DNA from: Candidatus Omnitrophota bacterium
Lineage (GTDB): Bacteria; Omnitrophota; Gorgyraeia; Tantalellales; Tantalellaceae
Assembly (NCBI GenBank): GCA_024277375.1
Contig: JAJRVD010000025.1
Coordinates: forward strand, 19,846 to 83,845
DNA: 64,000 nt
Direction: 5' to 3'
Part shown: positions 7,601-57,904 of the stretch, one piece after another
How positions within the stretch are numbered: position 1 is the stretch's first letter
Layout of the letters: each line of letters starts with the position of its first letter
Notes under the pieces: generated by a model
What the model saw: the letters and a program-made list of their open reading frames with translations, nothing else
Database searches by the model: none
Told to the model about the DNA's origin: nothing
Made by a program: the position numbers and the translations under genes

Positions 7601-7752
7601 TGCAAAACGCTTTTTTTTAATCAGACTGTACCATAATGTAGGGGCTTGATTCATCAAGCCCATTATATCGGGTTCGATGAATCGAACCCCTACAATCAAT
7701 ACATTGTATGCGGACATCCGCAAAACGAATTACGAAAGTCCTATTTTGCAGG
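7601..7752 (+). repeat. MITE-like element, family A, copy 1
   Basis: Outer ends TGCAAAACG / ATTTTGCAGGA; arms CAGACTGTACCATAAT / AATTACGA; core GTAGGGGCTTGATTCATCAAGCCCATTATATCGGGTTCGATGAATCGAACCCCTAC; lies between serA and the aminotransferase gene. Confidence 0.85.
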
Positions 7753-9793: not shown

Positions 9794-11068
9794 CTATTTT
9801 TTCTCGACTATTTCCGCCTCATCGAGGAGAAAATCCAGTGTTTTATCTTCTCTTATCTGTTCCTCAAGCCCTCCGATAAGATCATTTTCTCTGTAGTATT
9901 CCTTAACTTTGTCGAAGGGTTGGTTATAACTGACAGCGAGATTCCTGATCCATTCCTCCGTCTCTTCGTCCGTGGACTCAACCTTCTCAATGTTCGCGAT
10001 CGCGTCGAGGATAAAATACAATTTAACTTTGTTTTCGGATTCTCTGGTAAGTTGGTCCTTTAGTTCCGCTTTATGCGATTCCATGGTCTTCTCATCTACG
10101 CCTTTCTGCTTCAATTCGTTTTCCGCTTTTTCCGTAAGCACTTTCAATTGTCTCGCGACCATAGTTTCCGGGAGGTCAAAGGCATGTTTCTTGAGCAGTT
10201 GTTCCATGATCTGATTTTTCATAGCCACTTTATCGTTGTACTGTTTTCTCTCTAAGAGTTGTGCTCGCACTTCATTCCGCGCGTCATCCATTGTTTCTTT
10301 GCCTATCTTTTTGGCAAATTCGTCATTCAACTCAGGCAGTTTTTTCTATTTCGTTTCTTTGACTTCAACCTTAAATATAGCTTTTTTGCCGGCATATTTT
10401 TCGTCAGGATAATTTTCCGGTAAAACGATCTCCATGTCTTTCCGGTCTCCTTTTTTTAGACCGATAAGCTCCTCGCCCATCCCCAGAAGAGAGGTTTCTT
10501 TGTCTGCTTCGATCCACATGTTCTCGCGTTTTTTTGAGATCAATTTATCATCCATAAAAGTTTCCACATCACAAACACCAAAATCTCCTTTTTTCATGGA
10601 TCTCTCGATATCACTAAATTCGGCATTCATGCTCTGGAACCGCTCTATGGTCTCCTCTACTTCTTTGCCTTCAACTGTTATCTTCTCTGCGGAAACTTTC
10701 AAACCCTTATATTTCTGTAACTTTATCTCCGGATGTGTATCCACTTTAGCTTTAAATTTAAGACCCCCTGAAGCTTCCATGACCACATCTGAAACCTCAG
10801 GAAGACTTACCGGCGTGATACCGTGATCGTTCAACGCCCATTGATACCCCTCGGAAACCAAACGACGTTGAACTTCATCGGTCGCTTCCTCATGATGATG
10901 TTTTTGCACAATATCCATAGGAGCTTTACCCGTCCTGAAACCCGGAATAGTCACGGTTTTACGAATATCTTCCAGCACCTCTTTATAAACTTCTTCAACT
11001 TTCTGGCTTGGGATCTCTATGTCCAACTGCCTGGACGTTCCTTTAAGTTTTTTTATCTTACCTTTCAT
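9794..11068 (-). pseudogene. tig: trigger factor (tig) interrupted by a single in-frame TAG at 10346-10348
   Basis: ORFs 10346..11068 (N-terminal ribosome-binding plus PPIase domains) and 9794..10330 (C-terminal domain) are in the same frame. Translation reads ...KVEVKETK-TAG-KKLPELNDEFAKK, collinear with the trigger-factor consensus (ELPELDDEFAK). No frameshift; combined length is 424 codons. Confidence 0.8.
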
Positions 11069-21180: not shown

Positions 21181-21345
21181 CTGCAAAATGAAATTTTCGT
21201 CATTCGGACTGTGTCGTAATTCGTTTAGCGGATAGCCGCATAAAATATATCGTAGGGGTTCGATTTATCGAACCCGATATAGCGGGCTTGATGAATCAAG
21301 CCCCTACATCATGGTACAGTCAGATTTAAAAAACAGCGTTTTGCA
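21181..21345 (-). repeat. MITE-like element, family A, copy 5 (reverse orientation)
   Basis: Reverse complement of the full-length element, including outer CTGCAAAATG / CGTTTTGCA ends; lies between the heptose kinase gene and trxA. Confidence 0.85.
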
Positions 21346-21367
21346 TAAGCCTAATTACATATTTCCG

Positions 21368-21394
21368 GCAGGGCGTATCGCAACACGCCCCTAC
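21368..21394. repeat. REP-like palindrome type 3b
   Basis: GCAGGGCGTATCGCAACACGCCCCTAC between MITE copy 5 and trxA. Confidence 0.7.
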
Positions 21395-21399
21395 CCAAA

Positions 21400-21729
21400 T
21401 TAAAGTTGAGCGTCGATCTTAGAAACAATATCGTTTTTCGGTACTACGCCCACCATTTTCTCAGCTACTTCCCCACCTTTGAAGATGATCAAACTGGGTA
21501 TGTTCATAATACCGTATTCAGACGCCGTTTTCTGTCCCTCTTCAACGTTCAGCTTACATACCTTAAGTTTACCGTTATATTCCTGAGCTAATTCACCGAT
21601 CGTAGGCGCTATCATGCGACATGGTCCACACCATTCCGCCCAGAAGTCTACCAATACCGGCAGTTCTGATTCCAAAACTTCCTGTTTGAAATTTTCATCA
21701 TTTACCTTGATCTCTAATTCTTCGCTCAT
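21400..21729 (-). CDS. trxA: thioredoxin
   Basis: 109 aa; WCGPC active site. Confidence 0.93.
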   Translation of the reverse strand: MSEELEIKVNDENFKQEVLESELPVLVDFWAEWCGPCRMIAPTIGELAQEYNGKLKVCKLNVEEGQKTASEYGIMNIPSLIIFKGGEVAEKMVGVVPKNDIVSKIDAQL

Positions 21730-21806
21730 AGCTCCCCCCCCTAATAATATATATTATTCAGCCTATTATTATATGCTTTTTTTTTAAGTACGTAAAGGGG
21801 CTAGTC

Positions 21807-22850
21807 TTAAGTCTTTTGTTTTAATATGGTTACAGAGGCTTGAAACACTTCCTCGTCGGTTACTGCTTGCAAGCATTCAAAGTGTCGTTCACAATTATGG
21901 GCAAGACATTTTTGACAGCCCACGTCTTTGTGCAACACCTTATCACTTTCGCCTAAAGGCCCCCACCGCAAGGGCGAAAGCCCCGGGTCACTCCGACCGA
22001 AAATAACTACTGTCGGAGTTCCAACAGCTACGGACACATGAACGGGACCGGAATCGTTAGAAATGAATAAACGGCAGCGAGAAAGAACTTCGGACAGTTC
22101 ACCAATAGACAATTTTTGTGTTAGATCAAAAGCCTTGGATCTTACTTCGGAGACGATTTGAGAACTATACGTTTTTGTTTCACCCGATCCCACAACAACA
22201 ATGTCACACCCATATTTTTCAACAAGCATATCGGCGACTTGAATAAAACGCTCGGGAGGCCATCGTTTTGACGGACAGCTGGCGCCGGGATGAAAAGCAA
22301 TAATGTTATCCCCTATCTCATTTTCCTCAAGAATAAAGTCGACACGTTTTTTTTGGCGCTCATCGGTCACTACATAAGGCAGACGATCCGCGCCATCCGT
22401 ATCCAATCCACATTTTTTTAAAAGATCGAAATTGTAATCTACCTCATGCTTTGTTCCTTCTTGTTTATCATGAAATATTTTTTCTGTTAGCAAACAGCCC
22501 ATTTTCCTGTCATATCCTATCCGGCGGGAGATCCCGGCCAAAAACAACATGACATGCACACGGTTCGTAGGATGAAGCGCTATCGCCATATCAAACCCTT
22601 TTTTTCTGAGTCTGAAAGCGAAGTTTATCGTACTCCAGAAACTTTTGTGAATGCCGCGCTTATCATAAATAATTACTTCATCAAGGTGGGGATTATTGGA
22701 AACTACGTCAAAGTTTTCCGGCCTTACCATAAAAGCAATGTACGCATCGGGGTTTTGTTCTCTCAGAAGGCGGATCGCCGGAGTTGAAAGCACGACGTCG
22801 CCGAGTCTATCGGTCCGTGTGATCAGTATACGTCGAGAATTGCCTGTCAT
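21807..22850 (-). CDS. ADP-heptose:LPS heptosyltransferase (GT9 family)
   Basis: 347 aa; GT9 N-terminal signature (ILIxRxxxLGDVVLSTPA) and C-terminal domain; lies within the LPS core cluster. Confidence 0.8.
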   Translation of the reverse strand: MTGNSRRILITRTDRLGDVVLSTPAIRLLREQNPDAYIAFMVRPENFDVVSNNPHLDEVIIYDKRGIHKSFWSTINFAFRLRKKGFDMAIALHPTNRVHVMLFLAGISRRIGYDRKMGCLLTEKIFHDKQEGTKHEVDYNFDLLKKCGLDTDGADRLPYVVTDERQKKRVDFILEENEIGDNIIAFHPGASCPSKRWPPERFIQVADMLVEKYGCDIVVVGSGETKTYSSQIVSEVRSKAFDLTQKLSIGELSEVLSRCRLFISNDSGPVHVSVAVGTPTVVIFGRSDPGLSPLRWGPLGESDKVLHKDVGCQKCLAHNCERHFECLQAVTDEEVFQASVTILKQKT

Positions 22851-26755: not shown

Positions 26756-28849
26756 TTAAGACTGCTTCATAACTTCCATCAAAGCATCAACAACTTTTTC
26801 AGGTTTGATCGAAGTTATACATTTTGATCTATCCTTACACGTCGGTTTATAACAGGGTGAACACTTTAAATTTTTATATAAAACTCTCATGTCTTCTGAC
26901 GGAGGAATATGCCTGTCGGGGTCTGTGGGACCAAAAAGGGCCACAAACGGCGTCCCGGTAGCGGCCGCCACATGCATAGGCGCGCTATCTCCCGTAACTA
27001 AAGCGTTACATCTCTCAATAAGGCTGATGAGTTGTGGAACATTCGTCTTCCCCACCGCGTCTATGGGTTTCGCTTCCGTCTTTTTGAGAAATTCCGCGGC
27101 ACACGGCCTGTCTTCTTCCGCCCCTAAAAGGACGACTCTCATCCCCTTATCACGAGCAAGTATCCGCGCCAATTCCACCATAGCCGGTACTCCCCAGTTT
27201 TTTGTCTCCCATCGTCTCGAGGCGGATAAGCTTAGAGCAACCAGTTTTTGTCCTTCTATCATCCATCGTTCTTTTAGAAACCTTTCGGCCCAAGCCTCAT
27301 TCGCGTCACCCGGCCATAATTCCAGGTTTTGTTTGATGCCTGTAATACCAAGAAGCCCCAAAACAAAGCTTTGATGTTTCACCGGTGTCATGGGTCTCCT
27401 CGGAACGCTGATTTTACGATTAAGAAGGAAACTTAACTTGCCATTATCATAGCCGAATCTTTCGGGTATCGCGCTTAAAAAAGAAAGAAGATGACTCTTG
27501 CGATTATTCTGAAGATCTATCGAAACATCAAAATCCTCTGCTCTTAATTTTCCGGCTAATTTTAAAAATCCGATCCCATTATCCCTGTTTTTAAAGTCAC
27601 CGGCAATGATCTCGTCGATATAGGGACAGTTGTCCAACAGCTCCCTGAAACGCACATCAACGAGGATCTTAATATTAGCGTTTTTAAAGCGGTTTCTAAC
27701 AGCGCGCAGCGAGGGAGTGCTGAGAATAATATCACCGAGCGAACTTATTTTAAAAATAAGTATATTTTTCAGACCAAAAACACGTTTGTACGCTTCCAGC
27801 GTCATAGTCATCGTTTTTTCCAGAGAATAATTCTCTTCCACATATTTCCTGGCATTTTCGGCAACTTTCATGACCAGATCGGGTTCCTCGGCATAACGCA
27901 TGATCTTGGCGGCCATATCGGTTGGATCTTTTGGCGCGCAGAAGAGACCCGTCAAACCATCATTTATATTTTCCACAACACCACCTATTCTGGTAGCTAC
28001 AACCGGAACACCCCTGGCCTGTGCCTCGATAATCGACCTTCCAAAAGCTTCCTGTTCACTGTTTGCGGAAACCAGGACATCTAACCCTCCAATAACATCC
28101 GCTACATCTTTAGTGCTATCAACAAATTTCACCGATCTTTCGATCATCAGGCGACGCATCGTAAGGCTGATCCTTCTAAGATACTCCTCCTTAGCGGACG
28201 TTCTGTCTCCCATCATAACGATCTCAACATCAGGGATCTTACGCAAAACGTGCGCCATGGCTTTCAGAAAATCCACATGACCCTTTAGCGGTGTAAACCG
28301 ACATATCATTCCTACCCGAAAAGGCTTACTTCTCGCGGCCGACGGGGGGACAAAGGAAAATTTCTTAAGATCCACGCCCCGGGGAATAATAGTGATCTTT
28401 TGCCGGGGTACATTGAAATTATCTTTCATGTACCTGGCCATCGTCTCATTGGCGGTAATAACAACTTTTCCCCACCCCATAACTTTACTGATCAGATGTT
28501 TTCTATATTGACCATGCGCGGTTGTAACAAATGTCTTCTGCAAAGAACGAGCGGCAAAGTAACCTATAAGTGCCGGAACCCTGCTTCTGCCGTGTACAAT
28601 ATCTATACTGTCCTTTCGAATGATATGCCTGAGCTTAAAGTAACAACGTATCATGACTAAAGGATTCTTACTGCCTACAGGAAGCGTATAATGGCGTCCC
28701 CCGATAGCGCTGAGATCTTTCTCCATGCGGCCACCTGCCGAGACCACTACCGCTTTATGACCGTTAAGGGTTAAGTACCGGGCGACTTCTATGGTCCCCT
28801 TCTCTACTCCACCGACATTAAGTTTTGGAACTAACTGTAAAATATTCAT
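26756..28849 (-). CDS. bifunctional glycosyltransferase: N-terminal GT4 fused to C-terminal GT9 heptosyltransferase
   Basis: About 700 aa; residues ~1-370 are GT4 (EAFGRSIIEAQARGVP); residues ~375-712 are GT9 (ILIFKISSLGDIILSTPSL ... GDSAPMHVAAA). Start set at MNILQLV to avoid overlap with the upstream gene. Confidence 0.75.
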   Translation of the reverse strand: MNILQLVPKLNVGGVEKGTIEVARYLTLNGHKAVVVSAGGRMEKDLSAIGGRHYTLPVGSKNPLVMIRCYFKLRHIIRKDSIDIVHGRSRVPALIGYFAARSLQKTFVTTAHGQYRKHLISKVMGWGKVVITANETMARYMKDNFNVPRQKITIIPRGVDLKKFSFVPPSAARSKPFRVGMICRFTPLKGHVDFLKAMAHVLRKIPDVEIVMMGDRTSAKEEYLRRISLTMRRLMIERSVKFVDSTKDVADVIGGLDVLVSANSEQEAFGRSIIEAQARGVPVVATRIGGVVENINDGLTGLFCAPKDPTDMAAKIMRYAEEPDLVMKVAENARKYVEENYSLEKTMTMTLEAYKRVFGLKNILIFKISSLGDIILSTPSLRAVRNRFKNANIKILVDVRFRELLDNCPYIDEIIAGDFKNRDNGIGFLKLAGKLRAEDFDVSIDLQNNRKSHLLSFLSAIPERFGYDNGKLSFLLNRKISVPRRPMTPVKHQSFVLGLLGITGIKQNLELWPGDANEAWAERFLKERWMIEGQKLVALSLSASRRWETKNWGVPAMVELARILARDKGMRVVLLGAEEDRPCAAEFLKKTEAKPIDAVGKTNVPQLISLIERCNALVTGDSAPMHVAAATGTPFVALFGPTDPDRHIPPSEDMRVLYKNLKCSPCYKPTCKDRSKCITSIKPEKVVDALMEVMKQS

Positions 28850-28850
28850 A

Positions 28851-30800
28851 TTAGAATAATCTGTACATCCTCTCGTACATCCGTTTATCATCATCAGGCA
28901 AAACGGTTTCGTTTTTGTCTTCTATGGCGCGAATCGTTTCTTTTCTTATCTCGCCCGCCTCTATACATTTGACGTATCCGTTCTTCGCGAGATCATTGAC
29001 AAACCGTTCATACTTGGTGACTTTCCTGGTTTTTTTCTCGGGCATGAAAACCAGGGTTGGCTTCCCGGAAGATACTGCCTCCGAAACCATCGAAATGCTT
29101 TCTCCCGAAACAACAACAACATCACTTTTCGCTAATATTTTTTCAACTGTATTTTTATCCTTATCTTGCACGCCTGAAACAAACTTACCTTTCACCTCTT
29201 TATTCTCAATATTTTCTTTGAGAATCGCTTCAATCTCTTTCGGTGTTCTTCGTGATGTAGTCACGTAAAAACCGCCCTCTATACCGACACACGCGTCACG
29301 TATTCCATCCGCTACAACTTTTGCCAGATCCTCGCCAAAACTGAAATGCGGATTGTCTCCGCCAAACAGCAAGCCAATACATTTTCGCTTGTCATCTGAC
29401 CCGCCCACCGTAGCTTCAGCGAGAGTGGGAGCCTCTATGTGTGCTTTTAGCCCTTCAGGGTCTATAAGATTAGGGGCTAGTTCCGTAACTATCACATTAT
29501 CTCTAACTTTTCCGCGCTGGTCATGTTTTGGCATAACTACAAGGTCAAAGCTCCTGCGATTGCCCCATCCCGGATCAAGCACAGTTACGTTTCGGGCATT
29601 ATTCTCTATTTTTATCATTTTATTAACCCCGAACAGTGTAGATCCGCAACTTATTATAACATCACCATACCGGCTACTTAGAACCTCGTAGCTTTCATTA
29701 GAAAGCGCCCGCTTTAAACATTTTAAACATCCCTGACAACGCCTGGTAAAAAACGGACTTATAGCGTTAAAAACAGCCTTGGCCCGCTTGCTTTTAAACT
29801 GAACTCTGAGGATATCAACTTCAACTTCCCCCTGCCGAAACCCTTCGTCTCTCCTATACATCTCGATCTGTTTAACAACCGCCAACGACTGTTTAAGATG
29901 CCCCTTTTTACCATCGTCCAGAACCATGATCTTTTTAACGGGGGTCAACTTCCATCTCTTATGCATCCAGAACCACTGTTCGGGATACGCCCTTATGTGC
30001 TTTTCGAGAAGCTTATTGTACCTTCGAGCATAAAGAGTAACATCCTCATCTTTTCCGACAACCATGGGTTCTTCCAGGATCAATTCCTGATAAGGTCCCT
30101 TGACCCGGTGAATAAACGCCGGTAATACCCATGCTCCGCTCTTTTGAGCGAATCGGTATGGACCAATGGCTGTTGATGCCGGCCGTCCGAAAAAATCTAT
30201 AAGCTTACCGCTGGTACCCGCGTTTTGATCCGCGAGAAGGCCCACGCTTCTCCCTTCACGAAGAAGCCGGAACATCCTCTTGATATCCATCCCCTTGCGA
30301 ATTACGGTAGCTCCTTTTGATTCCCGCAGCTGATTAAAAAGCTCATTAAGCCTTTTCATTTTCTGCTCTCGCGCCAAAATACACAATGTGTATCCCTTAA
30401 TAGCGCTTGCCGCCGTACTTAATTCCCAATTCCCAAAGTGCGCGGAAACCATTATCATACCCTTCGGGTTTTTCGATGCTTTCTCTATCCTTTCCATATT
30501 TTGGATCTTTATGTATTTATCAACATACTTCTCATCGACCTTTGTCAAAGAAACAAGTTCGGCAAAAGTCTGTGCCATATGTCTGTAAACACCTTTTGAG
30601 ATATGCTTTATCTCTTTTGGTGTTTTCTCCCGGCAGAATGCCGCTTTGAGGTTGGCATATGTTATCCCTATTCTCTTTCCACTCAAAAGACGCACAAGAT
30701 CCCCAAGACACCTGCCCAACCAAAGGTTAAATCCTATCGGCATGACATGAAGAAACCGGTTCAATCCCCTAACCAGAAATGACGCTATTAAGTCCAGCAC
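28851..30800 (-). CDS. LpxL-family lipid A acyltransferase fused to ELM1/DUF1022-like GT-B domain
   Basis: 649 aa; N-terminal ~290 aa are LpxL/HtrB-like (HFGNWE, WFWMHKRWK); C-terminal ~350 aa match the mitochondrial-fission ELM1-like bacterial family (TTSRRTP ... SMVSEA motifs). Confidence 0.7.
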   Translation of the reverse strand: MLDLIASFLVRGLNRFLHVMPIGFNLWLGRCLGDLVRLLSGKRIGITYANLKAAFCREKTPKEIKHISKGVYRHMAQTFAELVSLTKVDEKYVDKYIKIQNMERIEKASKNPKGMIMVSAHFGNWELSTAASAIKGYTLCILAREQKMKRLNELFNQLRESKGATVIRKGMDIKRMFRLLREGRSVGLLADQNAGTSGKLIDFFGRPASTAIGPYRFAQKSGAWVLPAFIHRVKGPYQELILEEPMVVGKDEDVTLYARRYNKLLEKHIRAYPEQWFWMHKRWKLTPVKKIMVLDDGKKGHLKQSLAVVKQIEMYRRDEGFRQGEVEVDILRVQFKSKRAKAVFNAISPFFTRRCQGCLKCLKRALSNESYEVLSSRYGDVIISCGSTLFGVNKMIKIENNARNVTVLDPGWGNRRSFDLVVMPKHDQRGKVRDNVIVTELAPNLIDPEGLKAHIEAPTLAEATVGGSDDKRKCIGLLFGGDNPHFSFGEDLAKVVADGIRDACVGIEGGFYVTTSRRTPKEIEAILKENIENKEVKGKFVSGVQDKDKNTVEKILAKSDVVVVSGESISMVSEAVSSGKPTLVFMPEKKTRKVTKYERFVNDLAKNGYVKCIEAGEIRKETIRAIEDKNETVLPDDDKRMYERMYRLF

Positions 30801-37787: not shown

Positions 37788-39302
37788 TTAAAAGACTCCT
37801 TTTCTGACCATATCAAGAAATATATCCGTAAGCCGGGGGTCAATTTTGTGACCTTTTTCATTTTCCATTATCGCTACCGCCTCATCGATAGAGAACTTTT
37901 CGCGATATGGCCTGTCTGCAGTTAACGCCTCATATATATCGGCTATGCTTAATATCCGCGCTTCCAGTGGGATCCGCCATCCCTTTCGTCCTTTAGGATA
38001 ACCCGAACCATCAAAATTTTCGTGGTGATTTACAATGATAGGTATGGTCTTACGCAGAAAATAGATCAGCCGTGCCATCTCGGCACCCCAGTAAGAATGC
38101 ATCTTCATCTGTCGAAACTCATTTTTTGTCAGCTGTTCTTTTTTGAACAAGATACTCTCTTCTACACCCAACTTCCCTATATCATGCAGAAGCGCTGCCA
38201 CTTTAAGCCTTTCTGTCTTCACTTTACTCAGTTTGATCTTTTTCGCCAGACTGGCGGCAAAGGTCTTAACCCTAGCAGAATGTTCAGCCACCCATGGCTC
38301 ACTTCTCATGCCGGCATCGAACAGTATACCCATCATTTCAAGATGCGCCGCATGCAGCTCTTTCGATGAAAGAGTATGACTTTTCGCGCTACTATCTACC
38401 GGATCCTCCTTTTCTCTTCCGACAAACATATAAAACACGGTTTTCTCTTCTTTTATGGGCACCACCAACCAGGAGATATATTTCCCGGAGACACCGGACG
38501 CGACAACAGGCATATCAAATTTAAAAAGCCTGTTTTTTCTTTTCATCTCTTTATTTATTTTCCACGCGTCGCCTCGCGCAGATTCGGGTATTATACCATT
38601 GATCCAGGACCGATTCATGATATCGTTTTCAAGAAGAGAGAACGCGGTTAAATATTTTTTGTTCACAAAAACAACCTGACCTTCGTTATCCACGAGCATT
38701 ACAGGGTATTTTATGTTCTGCAGCAATCTTTCAGAAAAATAACCCCAAAGAACGGTATTCTCTTCTAACCCCCGGCCTCTACCCTGTCGTCCTTCAAGGC
38801 GGTTACGCATAATATTCTTCACGCGATCTAAAACGATCGTAAGATCGAGTCCCGTAGTATCTATGTGATAGTTCGCTTTCTTGTAATATGGCCGACGATA
38901 TTCCAGAAGTTCTCTTATCATTTTCCGAGGATCATCAACTTCAAGAAGCGGCCTATGCGCATATTCTTTCGTTCTATCGTATATGGCGTCAACATCAGCC
39001 CATAGACATATAACAACACCAGTCCTACGAAGATCCTTCATATTTTGCCGATTCAAAACTACTCCACCGCCGGTGTCGATCACCTGATCCAATTTTGCCG
39101 AAACCTCTTTTACAACTTCTCGCTCGACCGTTCTGAAATATTCTTCACCTTCATCTCTGAAAATATCAGAAATAAGTTTGTCCTCCCGTATCTCTATGAG
39201 ATTGTCTACACTGACGTATTCCTTGCCCGTATCGTGAGCAAGCGCTTTGGCGATCTCGGTTTTCCCGGATCCCATAAAGCCTACAAGTACAATATTTTTC
39301 AT
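37788..39302 (-). CDS. shikimate kinase fused to PAS-like sensor and HD-GYP phosphodiesterase domain
   Basis: 504 aa; residues 1-175 are a complete AroK (GFMGSGKT Walker A, conserved shikimate-binding pattern); middle ~150 aa are PAS-like; the C-terminus carries HDIGK ... HHENFDGSGYP (HD-GYP signature). Confidence 0.75.
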   Translation of the reverse strand: MKNIVLVGFMGSGKTEIAKALAHDTGKEYVSVDNLIEIREDKLISDIFRDEGEEYFRTVEREVVKEVSAKLDQVIDTGGGVVLNRQNMKDLRRTGVVICLWADVDAIYDRTKEYAHRPLLEVDDPRKMIRELLEYRRPYYKKANYHIDTTGLDLTIVLDRVKNIMRNRLEGRQGRGRGLEENTVLWGYFSERLLQNIKYPVMLVDNEGQVVFVNKKYLTAFSLLENDIMNRSWINGIIPESARGDAWKINKEMKRKNRLFKFDMPVVASGVSGKYISWLVVPIKEEKTVFYMFVGREKEDPVDSSAKSHTLSSKELHAAHLEMMGILFDAGMRSEPWVAEHSARVKTFAASLAKKIKLSKVKTERLKVAALLHDIGKLGVEESILFKKEQLTKNEFRQMKMHSYWGAEMARLIYFLRKTIPIIVNHHENFDGSGYPKGRKGWRIPLEARILSIADIYEALTADRPYREKFSIDEAVAIMENEKGHKIDPRLTDIFLDMVRKGVF

Positions 39303-39504: not shown

Positions 39505-40632
39505 TTACATACTTTTTAGTTGCTCCAAATATCCCTCGTAATTCCGGCGGATCTCTTTCATGGAGTCTCCGCCAAACTTCTCTAAAAATACGGCGCCAAT
39601 TTCTATAGCCACAGCCGCTTCGGCGATAACACCGCAAGCCGGAACCGCGGTTACATCAGAACGCTCCGTAGCGGCTTCCGCTTCCTTCTTCGTATCGATA
39701 TCAACAGTTTTTAACGGACTTGCCAAAGTCGCTATGGGCTTCATAAAAGCCTTTACTACAACCGGAGCTCCATTCGTAACTCCGCCCTCTATTCCTCCGG
39801 CATTGTTAGATTCTCGCGTGAACATTCTCCCCAAACTATCATATCCTATCGGATCATGCGTGAGCGAGCCCTTTCGCTACGCGCATTCTATTCCCTTTCC
39901 TATCGAAACCGCCTTTACCGCGGGTATTGCCATAACGGCACGTGCTATCCGACCATCCAACCTTCTGTCCCACTGCGCGTATGTCCCCAATCCCGGAGGG
40001 ATTTCAAGTACCGCGATCTCGATGGTACCACCCAAAGTATCACCGCAAATTTTCGCGTTATCAATGATCTTACGCATACTTTTCGCGGCATTCTTGTCCG
40101 CGCATCTAAGATCTGAAACTTCAGCGATCTTTTTTATTTCATCAAAGAAAAGTCCGTCGGTTTCCGCCTCGACGTTTCCTATCGCGGTAACATGGCTCAT
40201 TACATCAATACCAAATTCTTTAAATATCAATTTCGCGACAGCACCAACAGCGACTTTTATCGCTGTCTCTCGTGCCGAGGCTCTCTCCAGAACATCCCGG
40301 GCGTCTCCAAGAGCATATTTCTGCACACCGGCCAGATCGGCATGTCCGGGACGAGGACATTTTACATCAGGAAGTTTATCGATCTTATGATCCTTATTGC
40401 GTATCAAAAGCCCCACAGGACTGCCTATAGTAAACCCGCCTCGAATGCCGGTCACTACTTCGACCTTATCCCTCTCGATCTTCATCCGGCCGCCTCTACC
40501 ATACCCTACCATACGCCGGGTGAGCTCTTTGTTGATGAATTCTTCATCCATTTTGAGACCCGCGGGCACGCCGTCCAAAACCGCCATTAATCCCTTGCCG
40601 TGGGATTCTCCCGCAGTCATATACCTTAGCAT
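39505..40632 (-). pseudogene. aroC: chorismate synthase (aroC) interrupted by a single in-frame TAG at 39877-39879
   Basis: ORFs 39877..40632 and 39505..39834 share a frame. Read-through gives ...SIGKGIECA-TAG-RKGSLTHDPIGYDSLGRMFTRESNNAGGIEGG, collinear with the AroC consensus (GxGFxxAxxxGSxxxDxI...RSNxAGGIxGG). Total 376 codons. Confidence 0.8.
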
Positions 40633-41684: not shown

Positions 41685-41885
41685 GTCATTCAGACTGTAT
41701 CATAATGTAGGGGCTTGATTTATCAAGCCCGTTATATCGGGTTCGATGAATCGAACCCCTACAATATGTTGTATGCGACCATCCGTAAAACGAATTACGA
41801 CACATCCTTAACCGAGGACATCGTTCCCGAGTAAGTCCCGGGACCAGAGGTTCTCGGGAAAGGGCCGAGTCAAAGGATCTCTTAT
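41685..41885 (+). repeat. MITE-like element, family A, copy 10 (composite with type-2 tail)
   Basis: Core plus arms at 41685-41806, then a tail ending GGGCCGAGTCAAAGGATCTC; lies between pilD and aroE. Confidence 0.82.
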
Positions 41886-42784
41886 TTGTCTCTCTTCAAC
41901 TCCGCCAAAACCGCTTCTTTCATAACTTTTTTCGTCTCTTCAAGAGGCTTCCCCGTCCATATATTAAAAGCAATGGCCGCCTGGTTGATCAGCATACCCA
42001 ATCCATTAACCGCTGTGAGCCCTTGTTCTTTCGCGGTTTTTAGAAGCCTCGTTTCCCGGGCATAGACAAGATCATATACTGTCATCCCCTCTCTTAAACA
42101 CTCAAGAGGAACAGCCGAACGATCATCCCCCTCTTTCGTTCCGATCGGGGTCGCGTTTACAACAAGTTCGCATTAGGCCATTCTTCCGGAAATATCTTTT
42201 GCCTCAACAGGGACGCACGCGTCCGGCCCAAACTGCTTCTTGCAAACAGTTGCCAATTGACAAAGTAGATCCTCTTGCGAATCATAAAGAAATATTTCTT
42301 CAGGTGCCGCCTCACCGATAGAAGCAAGATACATGCACAGAGCTCGCCCCGCCCCGCCGGATCCAAACAGAAAAACCTTTTTACCTTTGGGGTCAAATCC
42401 CGCGTCTTCTTGCAATGATTGATAAAACCCTTCCACGTCAGTATTATACCCCTTAACCTTTTCACCATCACTCCTGACGGTATTGACAGCACCCAGCAAT
42501 TCCGCTTCGCTATCTATAGTACACTTCTGTCCGGATTTCAGCATATCAAACACGGCTATCTTATAAGGTACCGTAACATTAATACCACCAATATTGTTGT
42601 CCTTGATAAGACTCAAGAAATCCTTATCTATATGTTTTGCTCTGGTGTCAAAATCTCTATCGAAAAGTTTATATTCGGTTGGTATGCCAAAATGGGCAAG
42701 CGCCGCATTATGCATGACGGGAGACAAAGAATAGCTTATATTCTTCCCAAGAAGACCGTATACTTTAGCGTTGACGTTCGACAT
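41882..42784 (-). pseudogene. aroE: shikimate dehydrogenase (aroE) interrupted by a single in-frame TAA at 42173-42175
   Basis: ORFs 42173..42784 (N-terminal substrate domain; Rossmann GSGGAGRA) and 41882..42085 are in the same frame. Read-through gives ...DISGRMA-TAA-CELVVNATPIGTKEG...MTVYDLVY..., matching the AroE consensus DLVVNATxxGM. Confidence 0.8.
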
Positions 42785-42834: not shown

Positions 42835-43030
42835 CAATCTCTGCAAAAATAATGTTTTATGGGGATTGCCGCGTCATCATTCGCTTTGCAAATGAACTCC
42901 TCGCATTCAGGCTGTGTCACAAGTCACTTTATGAAAGCTACATACAACATATTGCAGGGATTCATTTATCAAACCCGATATAACGGGCTTGATAAATCAA
43001 GCCCCTACATTGCGACACAGCATGAATGAC
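42835..43030 (-). repeat. MITE-like element, family A, copy 11 (degenerate, reverse orientation)
   Basis: One core half is retained (GATATAACGGGCTTGATAAATCAAGCCCCTAC); the other half is degenerate; the arms carry the CAAGTCACTTT...ACATACAACAT subfamily sequence; lies between aroE and leuA. Confidence 0.65.
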
Positions 43031-53958: not shown

Positions 53959-54702
53959 TTACTTCGCTAGAAAAGTTACATATTCTTTAAACTCAATTTT
54001 TTTCCCATTATATGCCATACGTTTTCCATCAACAACTTTAAGAGCCGACGTGTATATCTTGCGCTTTAAATTACTCATCCCGTTCTCTAAAAATTTTAGG
54101 TATCTATCGGCATCCTCTTTAAACGCCAGCGAACTCCTGTAAGCGTTTAAGTTTCCAAAATATAACTCTTCATTTTCGATCCCTGAAAGCTCGATCTTGT
54201 ATGGATTGTTTATAGCGAAGAATTCGGCACCTGTAACACGTCCGGCTTTCACAAATAAGTCGGATACCTGTTCTCTTACCTGTCGGTCACGTATGTCGGT
54301 AAACATCGACAGGTCATACTCGCCCGCTCCCCCTTCAAGAAACGCGAGATCCGCGCCATAAGCTTCATTGGTATACTTCATGAGGTTGGCGATAGATCGT
54401 TGGGCGGAATAGTTACAATGGGCGTCCTGGATGTGGATGATCGTTTTACCATTCTCACCGGAGATCCTGCGTTTTATCTCTCCAAAACGTAGCGGCACCG
54501 TAGAGGAGGCGGGGTCGAATTCCTCCCGGGCATATACCTCGCCTCCCGGGATACCGGCAATAATTCCCGGCACCTCGACAGCAGCGATGGCTCTAGCCAG
54601 ATCCGCGCCTATCATTGTGAACGAAAAAGAACACAGCGTAATTATCGCGAATGTTCTCATCAGCGTCTTTCTGAGACCGGTTTTATTATTAGAATAACAC
54701 AT
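53959..54702 (-). CDS. hypothetical secreted protein (possible N-terminal part of the giant protein)
   Basis: 247 aa; N-terminal signal/TM segment; strong AGGAGGA RBS before ATG 54702; same frame as 49012..53844, separated from it by one TAA plus 38 stop-free codons. Confidence 0.55.
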   Translation of the reverse strand: MCYSNNKTGLRKTLMRTFAIITLCSFSFTMIGADLARAIAAVEVPGIIAGIPGGEVYAREEFDPASSTVPLRFGEIKRRISGENGKTIIHIQDAHCNYSAQRSIANLMKYTNEAYGADLAFLEGGAGEYDLSMFTDIRDRQVREQVSDLFVKAGRVTGAEFFAINNPYKIELSGIENEELYFGNLNAYRSSLAFKEDADRYLKFLENGMSNLKRKIYTSALKVVDGKRMAYNGKKIEFKEYVTFLAK

Positions 54703-55290
54703 GGTTCCTCCTGAAAGTTTTTAAACGACCTTAATTAGTTTGCAAAAAAATATCGTCCAGATCACCTAAATTATTTCACTTAAACGCGCTATGCGCATCT
54801 ACATATTAGTTTACCTAATAGACTAGAATTTACAAACTTTATAATCGTACTTTTTCATATCTAACCATAGCGTGGCCCTCATATCGGGGCCCATCCTGGG
54901 GCCAGGCCCCAAGGGGCCACCCCTGAGCACAAAAAATGGCCGATATTCTAACTTTTTCGCTTAACAGACGCCCCTGCTACCGATTGGTGCAGGCCACAGC
55001 TGTCCGGTAAAAATTTCTACGAGGATCTTTCGTGTTTATTTCATCAAGAGGCAGAACGATTTAACAGTGTAACCTCAATATTTATAGCAATCACCAAATA
55101 AATTGTTTTCGTATCGTATGCTGTCCAATAAATTTCTCGCAAACAATGTCCCGGGTAAATCCACAGTACCAGGTTCCCGTAATCACAGAGCCTCTTATAT
55201 GAGGGGGTGTGCCGCGCGCAGGCACGGAAAAAAGGGAAAATGTTTCCGTTTTTACGCATGTTTGAGCACGGTATACCCCCTCAGATACAA

Positions 55291-55405
55291 ACTGTGTCGT
55301 AACGTAGGGGCTTGATTTATCAAGCCCGTTTATATCGGGTTCGATGAATCGAACCCTTACAACATATTGTATGCGGCCATCCACAAAACGAATTACGACA
55401 CAGCC
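55291..55405 (+). repeat. MITE-like element, family A, copy 16
   Basis: Arms ACTGTGTCGTAACGTAGGGG / ATTACGACACAGCC; core with minor substitutions; lies between the giant-ORF upstream region and alr. Confidence 0.82.
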
Positions 55406-55529
55406 TCTCATATAAGGAGCCTACCTATTTATGAAGAGATTCTTCAGTCGCTATCGCTCCTTCAGAATGACGAATTTTTACGATTTCCCCGAACAGGTGT
55501 GGGTGCAAACTGAAAATCATACAAAAAAA

Positions 55530-56660
55530 TTAACCTTTATAAATTCTTGGGACACGGTCGGTTATGGCGGAAAGGATCTCGTATGGAATGGTTCCGGCAA
55601 GTTTGGCTATTCTTTCGATGGATATTTCCGAAGTGCCCTGCTTGCCGATAAGGACGACTTCGTCGCCGACTTTTACGTTCTCAATATGACCCACATCCAG
55701 AAGAGCCTGATCCATGGTCACCATGCCAACTACCCTGGCATGCTGTCCCTTTAAAAGGGCCTCGGCTTTATTGGAAAGGATTCTACCATAACCGTCAGCA
55801 TAGCCTATCGGTATCGTAGCTATCTTTGTGTTTTTTTGCGTTATATATGTCCGGCCGTAGCTTATAGCACGACCGGAAGGGGTCTCCTTGAGGTGTACTA
55901 TTTTGGTCTTAAGATTCATCGCGGGACGCAGGTGAAACCTCCCGCGAAAATTTTCTTTAGGATACACACCATACAAAAGTATCCCTGTCCTTACAAGATT
56001 TAGATGGGAGCCCCTCCAATAAATAACAGCAATACTATTAGCCGCGTGTTTGTATTTAATCTCGATCCCTTCGGCATCTATGACATCGAGGACCTTACGA
56101 AAAGAATTGATCTGCAGATTTGTTGTTTTCCTGTCACGCGCGGCTGAGGAAAAATGAGTGTATATTCCCTCGATGTCTATATCTTCAGAGGAATGAACTT
56201 TTTTGATAAATTCAAGCGCTTCCTCATGCCACACACCTATACGTCCCATCCCTGTATCTATTTTAAGATGCACCTTAGGGCGCGCCGTTATTTCTTTTGC
56301 CAGCTTTATGATTATCCGGAATAGCTCCTGATCACATAATGTCAGTGTGATATCATGCATTACAGCAGCTTTAGCTTCTTCGCGGAGCACTGAACCGAGA
56401 ACAAGTACAGGTGCTAATATCCCGGAAGACCTTAGAGACAAAGCTTCATCAACGGTCGCCACGCCTAGATAATCGACCCCGCCTTCGCTTAATACACGGC
56501 CGATCCGATCAATACCATGGCCGTAAGCGTTTGCTTTAACAACGGCCATTATCCCTGTGTTTTTGTCAATATGGTCGCGGATACACCCCAGGTTATACCT
56601 GACAGCATCCAAGTCTACTTCCGCCCATGTCGGCCTGTAATTTTTGTTTATTGTGTTCAT
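55530..56660 (-). CDS. alr: alanine racemase
   Basis: PLP-binding VVKANAYGHG motif and full Alr homology; start at MNTINKNYRPTWAEVDL (ATG 56658-56660); the ORF track extends to 56705. Confidence 0.9.
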   Translation of the reverse strand: MNTINKNYRPTWAEVDLDAVRYNLGCIRDHIDKNTGIMAVVKANAYGHGIDRIGRVLSEGGVDYLGVATVDEALSLRSSGILAPVLVLGSVLREEAKAAVMHDITLTLCDQELFRIIIKLAKEITARPKVHLKIDTGMGRIGVWHEEALEFIKKVHSSEDIDIEGIYTHFSSAARDRKTTNLQINSFRKVLDVIDAEGIEIKYKHAANSIAVIYWRGSHLNLVRTGILLYGVYPKENFRGRFHLRPAMNLKTKIVHLKETPSGRAISYGRTYITQKNTKIATIPIGYADGYGRILSNKAEALLKGQHARVVGMVTMDQALLDVGHIENVKVGDEVVLIGKQGTSEISIERIAKLAGTIPYEILSAITDRVPRIYKG

Positions 56661-57081: not shown

Positions 57082-57235
57082 TTATCCCCCCTTTGTATCT
57101 GTTCCATTTTAACGCAATCGAAAGCAAAATCAAGATTATTCATAAAAAGTGAATGTATTTGACCAAAAAAAGTGTCTTATACTAATGAGAGGGGGTATCG
57201 CAGAAGTCAGGAGTCAGAATGATAAAGGGGAACAT

Positions 57236-57904
57236 ATGCTACAACTCAAAATTATCACATCGGCCATTATTAACGTTTTGTTTCCCGCGGAGTGTCCCGC
57301 GTGCAAAACCCGATCGGCCAAGTTTCCTGTGCCAATCTGTGAGAGATGCACACAGGATATCTCATCAAGTTCGTCGCTACCATCTACTTCGTCTTTTTAC
57401 CTTGCGAAGATACTCTCCTGCCGCCCGTATGATGGGACACTCAAACAATGTATCCGACAATTTAAATACCATCGAACAGAACGAATGATACTCGTCTTTG
57501 ATGAACTCATCAAAAAAACATACCTGAAAAATAAACATTCACTTAACGACATAGACATCATTGTCCCCGTTCCAATTAACAAACACAAAAAACGTCTGCG
57601 CGGGTTTAACCAAGCTGAGATACTAGCGCAGGTACTTGGTAACACCCTTTCACTACCGGTACCTTCCGCCAACCTTAAAAAAATAAAAAAAACTATCCCC
57701 CAGGCCGGACTCTCAAAAGAAAAACGTATTAACAATTTAATAAAAGCATTCTCTATTCGGGAACCACTTCTAATAAAGGAAAAACACATATTGTTAGTGG
57801 ATGACGTTATGACAACGGGAGCGACACTTGACACTTGTGCCAAGGAACTTTTAAAGGCCGGAGCAAAATCAGTCACTGGCTTTACGCTGGCGAGAACGTT
57901 ATAG
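57236..57904 (+). CDS. comFC: ComF-family phosphoribosyltransferase-domain protein
   Basis: The only plus-strand gene; N-terminal CxxC...CxxC zinc finger; C-terminal PRTase motif LLVDDVMTTGATL; start at the internal ATG (MLQLKII). Confidence 0.7.
   Translation: MLQLKIITSAIINVLFPAECPACKTRSAKFPVPICERCTQDISSSSSLPSTSSFYLAKILSCRPYDGTLKQCIRQFKYHRTERMILVFDELIKKTYLKNKHSLNDIDIIVPVPINKHKKRLRGFNQAEILAQVLGNTLSLPVPSANLKKIKKTIPQAGLSKEKRINNLIKAFSIREPLLIKEKHILLVDDVMTTGATLDTCAKELLKAGAKSVTGFTLARTL

Follow-up and report, generated by a model that had tools for sequence, protein, structure and literature searches.

A premature ochre codon in an otherwise intact shikimate dehydrogenase gene from Candidatus Omnitrophota, with three similar lesions in the same contig

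The shikimate dehydrogenase gene (aroE) of an uncultivated member of Candidatus Omnitrophota combines a high level of sequence conservation with a stop codon in the middle of the reading frame, and the question arises whether this stop reflects a genuine loss of function, a codon that is read through, or an error in the assembled sequence. The sequence-only reading of this DNA had described the stop as the replacement of one sense codon within aroE, with no frameshift and with the conserved C-terminal region following in the same frame. This description turned out to be exact with respect to the stop, the frame and the gene, although it left unmentioned that the gene lies on the minus strand, and it missed both the variability of the alignment column in which the stop occurs and the existence of like lesions in aroC, tig and a gene for a large secreted protein (Table 1). 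Because the same lesion is present in these genes, the question concerns the contig and not a single gene.

Table 1. Positions of the interrupted genes, their segments and the adjacent repeats in the window
Feature	Position	Strand	Remarks
aroE (shikimate dehydrogenase)	41882..42784	-	300 codon positions, counting the internal TAA; true terminator TAA 41882-41884
aroE N-terminal open segment, 203 aa	42176..42784	-	substrate-binding domain (K75, D116) and Gly-rich loop G141/G143/G144
aroE in-frame ochre codon TAA, codon 204	42173..42175	-	context GCC TAA TGC GAA
aroE same-frame continuation, 96 codons	41885..42172	-	NAT motif N210-T212, D238, Y241, G261..Q268 helix, SDH_C; intact
aroC (chorismate synthase), 375 codon positions	39505..40632	-	in-frame TAG 39877-39879
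tig (trigger factor), 424 codon positions	9794..11068	-	in-frame TAG 10346-10348
Large secreted protein, ~1,896 codons	49012..54702	-	in-frame TAA 53959-53961
REP/MITE-like repeat, just downstream of aroE	41690..41800	+	context only, outside the lesion
REP/MITE-like repeat between leuA and aroE	42930..43020	-	context only

In the window, that is, the entire stretch of 64,000 nucleotides analysed here, the stop in aroE can be seen directly in the letters, the plus strand reading tta (...gttcgcaTTAggccatt...) where the minus strand has TAA. Translation in one frame from 42784 to 41882 gives MSNVNAK...DISGRMA-stop-CELVVNATPIGTKEGDDRSAVPLECLREGMTVYDLVYARETRLL...AELKRDK-stop, i.e., 203 codons, the internal TAA, 96 codons and the terminating TAA, with the frame unbroken throughout, and with an X at the position of the stop the junction reads ..DISGRMA-X-CELVVNATPIGTK... 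The list of open reading frames contains a 203-aa frame (42173..42784, minus strand) that ends in DISGRMA, so that instead of the single uninterrupted frame of ~270-300 aa that defines AroE, the called product has 203 aa.

The assignment of the gene to aroE is borne out by the profiles that define the family (PF08501 plus PF18317; TIGR00507) as well as by the ortholog alignment. With X at the stop, Pfam recognises Shikimate_dh_N at residues 11-103 (E 3.7e-18) on one side and SDH_C at residues 261-293 on the other, and TIGR00507 aligns across the stop over profile positions 1-265 of 270, with a score of 193.8 bits against a curated equivalog cut-off of 200.2. The closest solved relatives are the AroE structures 1nvt and 2egg, which align end to end, and the nearest sequences, among the matches listed, are shikimate dehydrogenases from Candidatus Omnitrophota metagenome-assembled genomes (MAGs), with at most 58% identity. 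The joined length of 300 is within the range of the orthologs, mostly ~285-305 aa.

In an alignment with 28 Omnitrophota AroE orthologs, a check that the sequence-only reading had proposed, all invariant residues are retained on both sides of the stop, including the catalytic pair K75 and D116 and the glycines G141/G143/G144 upstream, and N210-A211-T212, D238, Y241, G261, Q268 and W276 downstream. The conserved C-terminal region indeed follows the stop (xLVVNAT...YxxxET.LL...GLGMLxxQA), and the Rossmann NADP(H)-binding domain is complete in the DNA, with the NAT motif and SDH_C located downstream of the stop. The stop itself falls in a variable loop position directly before the C-[DE]-L-V-V-N-A-T strand, in a column occupied by E in 50, G in 22 and K in 17 of 119 orthologs. 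As written, AroE would be cut after residue 203, and such a product is likely to be inactive because it would lack the second half of the Rossmann domain, namely, the NAT motif, D238 and the C-terminal helix.

The window was scanned for cases in which two long open segments in one frame are separated by a single stop, with ordinary adjacent genes set aside. Three cases were detected besides aroE, all on the minus strand, which makes four stops in 51 genes, a pattern that exceeds chance. In aroC, where the junction is ..SIGKGIECA-TAG-RKGSLTHDPIG.., a single Pfam Chorismate_synt match (residues 2-348) spans the stop, the protein passes the NF003793 and TIGR00033 equivalogs, and the orthologs have 375 aa, the same as the joined length. 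In tig, the junction is ..KVEVKETK-TAG-KKLPELNDEFAKK.. (KKLPELNDE after the stop), the Trigger_N, FKBP_C and Trigger_C domains are all present according to Pfam, TIGR00115 is passed, the orthologs have 423-424 aa compared to the joined 424, and the column of the stop is occupied by E in 84 of 119 orthologs. In the large secreted protein (..YVTFLAK-TAA-SKANGVDIEQ..), homologs retrieved in an exhaustive profile search cross the stop in one stretch; for example, P0364 aligns over query positions 4-747 and protein positions 6-767.

The large secreted protein contains no Pfam domain. More than 7,800 representative proteins (E up to 0.001) share the first ~550-750 residues in conserved form, and many of these relatives are 2,000-7,000 aa long, so this part of the protein has the look of an uncharacterised module that very large proteins carry at the N-terminus. 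Giant proteins have been reported for Omnitrophota, and the module is plausibly related to these.

All four truncated products, P0001 (203 aa, identical to the aroE N-terminal segment), P0173 (251 aa), P0324 (240 aa) and P0363 (1,610 aa), are NCBI-only singletons from one contig of 87,523 bp; the deposited MAG, therefore, contains the stops. No close relative of the lineage has been sequenced: at 90% identity, all proteins checked from the contig, even ClpP, AhcY and IlvC, stand alone in a collection of ~15 billion proteins, and the closest relatives, among the matches listed, show 58% (AroE) and 72% (AroC) identity. Exact-protein look-ups for independent copies of the locus, performed with the AroE fragment, PilD, P0001, IlvC and IlvN, gave no result; a scan of the GTDB-representative genomes with the AroE protein found nothing, the genome not being part of that set; and the context of the aroE stop, with the stop itself given as NNN, was not found in JGI metagenome contigs.

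Apart from the four interrupted genes, the window appears to be in good condition. End-to-end Pfam profile matches were obtained for ~45 of the 51-52 genes, and the other ~48 genes showed neither frameshifts nor truncated domains; the overlapping pairs of open reading frames, queC/queE, alr/doxX and lptF/lptG, are normal neighbours. Essential neighbours, such as topA, dxr, cdsA, uppS, lpxK and metK, are intact. Older pseudogene remnants were not found in the two larger intergenic gaps inspected, of which one (21203-21807) contains an intact thioredoxin gene and a copy of the repeat described below, and the other (54702-55530) contains a repeat copy and no recognisable gene. The extra lesions and relaxed constraint that are typical of decayed pseudogenes are not seen in the interrupted genes, each of which carries one lesion; in particular, AroE deviates at two of the columns that are 95% conserved, and 12% of the orthologs have as many such deviations or more.

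Several other features of the window deserve mention in their own right. All genes are on the minus strand except for a comF-like gene (57149-57904, plus strand). A shikimate kinase gene (37788-39302, minus strand) encodes a fusion protein of 504 aa in which SKI (residues 10-151) is joined to PAS and HD_5 (HD-GYP-like) domains, an unusual architecture that ties an enzyme of the shikimate pathway to a signalling-type phosphohydrolase. A lipopolysaccharide core cluster (26756-30800, minus strand) includes a fusion of GT4 and GT9 (heptosyltransferase) of 712 aa and a lipid A acyltransferase/ELM1-like fusion of 649 aa, along with three further GT9 genes, kdtA, lpxK, kdsA, kdsB, kdsC and kpsF.

In addition, a REP/MITE-like intergenic element of ~120-130 nt is present in at least 18 copies in the 64 kb. 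It consists of the adjacent hairpins GGGCTTGATTCATCAAGCCC and GGGTTCGATGAATCGAACCC inside an outer stem formed by TGTAGGGG and CCCCTACA, followed by a conserved tail, ..TATGCGGCCATCCGCAAAACGAATTACGACACAG.., with cores at 7663, 9660, 11813, 14905, 21267(-), 31874/31914, 37578, 39398, 40745(-), 41732, 42968(-), 44717(-)/44727, 45952, 46569, 48758 and 55330. Copies are found after most operon ends and flank aroE on both sides. The element has no match in Rfam, and its core has no exact match in GTDB-representative genomes or JGI metagenome contigs.

Whichever explanation holds, the lesion in aroE is a plain premature ochre codon. We tentatively prefer the explanation that the four stops are real, recent nonsense mutations in the sampled population, although it is somewhat less likely than all competitors taken together. 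A single base change, most parsimoniously G to T in an ancestral GAA codon for glutamate, would have converted a sense codon to TAA in an otherwise intact gene, and translation would now stop after residue 203, with the substrate-binding domain and the Gly-rich loop retained. The changes, presumably of biological rather than technical origin, would be so young that no further decay shows, and could represent a burst in which nonsense substitutions hit dispensable functions, twice in the shikimate pathway.

Omnitrophota are inferred to be largely host-dependent, and trigger factor is a non-essential chaperone in E. coli. All four genes, which account for two steps of aromatic biosynthesis, a chaperone and a surface protein, appear to be dispensable when nutrients are supplied, and two lesions in one pathway are what the early loss of aromatic biosynthesis is expected to look like. 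Moreover, the clean profile matches elsewhere in the window make an indel-prone error process unlikely, and indel-prone long-read error in particular is ruled out by the intact reading frames throughout the window. In-frame stops that persist only briefly are documented for bacterial genes that are otherwise under constraint (Belinky et al. 2021, PMC7918605).

Against the interpretation of the stops as recent mutations, four nonsense lesions with zero frameshifts are unusual for natural inactivation, considering that in surveys of pseudogenes indels usually comprise half or more of the lesions; at such a share, p would be roughly 0.01-0.1. Furthermore, a window representative of the genome would mean that about 7% of all genes are broken, which is hard to square with viability. 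Nor is there an excess of change at conserved columns: the four proteins together show 13 deviations at columns that are 90% conserved compared to 14.9 expected in a leave-one-out comparison, a test of low power given that only 1-2 extra deviations would be expected. Finally, no second copy of the lineage was found in the collections searched, and the allele comes from one assembly.

The same dependence on one assembly speaks for a technical artefact, that is, four wrong consensus bases in place of codons that are sense codons in the living organism, and we regard this explanation as unlikely although deserving serious consideration. A possible route is a substitution-only error caused, for example, by a damaged template, by early amplification in a low-input or low-complexity library, or by a local consensus error. 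The density of stops is far above that in other Omnitrophota assemblies, with none split among ~355 full-length aroE, aroC and tig orthologs listed from other genomes; the only short ortholog matches, among those listed, have 100% identity and are the organism's own fragments from the 87,523-bp contig. The four genes are otherwise pristine, and for three of the four stops a G:C to T:A change, the kind produced by 8-oxoG damage, suffices to reach the stop from a codon for the commonest compatible residue in the orthologs (GAA to TAA, GAG to TAG and TCG to TAG).

A random process, however, would come at a considerable cost. By the codon counts of the window, 4.2% of random single-base changes create a stop, so that ~100 substitutions in 57 kb (about 0.17%) would be needed for four stops, a figure that falls to ~43 for a process confined to G:C to T:A changes; a common assembly route that combines such a substitution rate with zero indels on an 87-kb contig is not known to us. 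Where the lineage has residues of its own at conserved columns, the underlying codons show no preference for G:C to T:A changes, and all four lesions miss essential genes (rough p ~0.2 under random errors).

A different possibility is that the stops are real but tolerated, full-length proteins still being made thanks to an ochre-type suppressor with a UUA anticodon, which reads both UAA and UAG, or to raised readthrough; we consider this explanation improbable. Nonsense changes would then drift in at substitution-tolerant positions while frameshifts are purged, an outcome to which we likewise assign a low probability. On paper, suppression fits best the observed pattern, in which the in-frame stops are TAA or TAG and never TGA, frameshifts are absent, and the downstream sequence is fully conserved with no decay, but the low prior makes it a doubtful choice. 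The more specific claim that the lineage tolerates UAA and UAG in conserved housekeeping genes through an ochre-type suppressor tRNA or through weakened RF1/RF2 termination appears still somewhat less likely. It has been argued that many bacterial in-frame stops are still under purifying selection (Belinky et al. 2021, PMC7918605).

Each of the hints of tolerance is statistically weak. TGA makes up 21% of the stops that random single-base changes create, so the absence of TGA among four stops (p 0.39) is uninformative, and the stop columns are rather variable, with a mean top-residue frequency of 0.47, which in a comparison with random stop-prone codons gives p 0.13. The terminators of the 51 genes are TAA in 30, TAG in 12 and TGA in 9, that is, TAA or TAG in 42 (82%), with no shift to TGA, and back-up stops directly after the terminator, found in 7 of the 51 genes, are no commoner after TAA or TAG (5 of 42) than after TGA (2 of 9). 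In E. coli, TAA followed by T (TAA-U in the message) is the strongest known termination context, and this is the context of the aroE stop, where unaided readthrough would be negligible. The 64-kb window contains no tRNA gene, and no report of stop-codon recoding in Omnitrophota was found in the literature.

An outright change of the genetic code, with TAA and/or TAG serving as sense codons in this organism, could be invoked because conserved genes contain four TAA/TAG codons in frame, but is very improbable and is effectively refuted by terminator usage: these codons terminate 82% of the genes, including aroE and aroC, both of which end in TAA, and are used in frame four times in 19,153 codons. 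Neither are the residues at the stop columns consistent, being E/G/K in aroE, G/S/A/Y in aroC, E in tig and K/L/R/T in the large protein. Rfam families were not detected in the window, and RNA structure in 95 nt around and after each stop is no better than in shuffled sequences (z 0.19 for aroE; -0.34, -1.49 and -0.54 for the others). Recoding thus is unsupported because TAA and TAG are the usual terminators, the residues at the stop columns differ, and no tRNA, Rfam family or structure accompanies the stops. Recoding of the selenocysteine or pyrrolysine type was rejected for aroE, where the codon is UAA, the fold z is 0.19 and there is no Rfam match.

The four stops share no motif other than the 4-mer CGAA, which occurs at most 9 nt from each stop at differing offsets (post-hoc p ~0.014), with equal spacing in tig and the large protein (CGAA-R-TAR). 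This is probably a by-product of the GAA-rich coding sequence.

It is also conceivable that aroE is a split gene, the two halves of which are made separately through re-initiation and assemble into an active enzyme. Nothing points specifically in this direction apart from an in-frame ATG with a purine-rich stretch at 42085, 30 codons past the stop. This possibility is remote: the 29 codons that follow the TAA include no in-frame start, which would leave the second half without the NAT motif, the break lies inside the Rossmann domain and not between domains, and no ortholog among those listed is split at that point.

The implications of the four stops differ depending on the explanation. For metabolic reconstruction, the interruption of both aroE and aroC means that the genome, in its deposited form, is unable to make chorismate; the cluster of four stops also flags the quality of the data. 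If the stops are an artefact, about 0.1% of the bases in the assembly would be substitution errors, and the gene content would be under-called. If they are real and inactivating, we might be observing a host-dependent lineage caught at the onset of the loss of aromatic amino-acid synthesis. If they are real and read through, this would be a rare case of natural bacterial UAA/UAG suppression, in which the two main stop codons are decoded ambiguously, and aroE, aroC, tig and the gene for the large secreted protein would still function despite their premature stops.

Among the known systems, ochre suppression in E. coli (supC, supG) would read UAA and UAG and not UGA, which are exactly the codons seen in frame here; the differences are that TAA is the main terminator in this contig and that no suppressor tRNA is seen in the window. 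Such suppressors, of which supC and supG are examples, are laboratory alleles of low efficiency: mutants of tRNA-Tyr, tRNA-Lys or tRNA-Gln with a UUA anticodon. Systems of stop reassignment (codes 4 and 25 in bacteria; TAG recoding in phages) have in common with the present case the in-frame stops in conserved genes, but in these systems the codon is no longer a terminator and occurs many times per gene, whereas here TAA and TAG end most of the genes and are scarce in frame. In selenocysteine and pyrrolysine recoding, a stop codon within a gene is read as an amino acid; these systems, however, belong to specific enzyme families and rely on UGA plus a SECIS element or on UAG plus the pyl genes, in contrast to the structureless UAA of aroE. 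The aroE case belongs to no recoding system, the defining features that can be tested being absent.

The young stops analysed by Belinky et al. (2021, PMC7918605) are alike in that a single stop, inferred to be young, interrupts a conserved and apparently constrained gene; that study, however, relied on stops shared by relatives and on dN/dS, whereas the present lineage has no relative above 58-72% identity. The closest category is the ordinary gene with an internal stop, of the kind flagged by genome annotation, in which, as in aroE, a stop takes the place of one sense codon, shortening the product and leaving the frame as it was. Ordinary internal-stop pseudogenes nevertheless differ from the situation described here, with four lesions in 51 genes, no frameshift and no other decay: the kind of lesion is already known, and it is the density of lesions that are exclusively nonsense that is odd.
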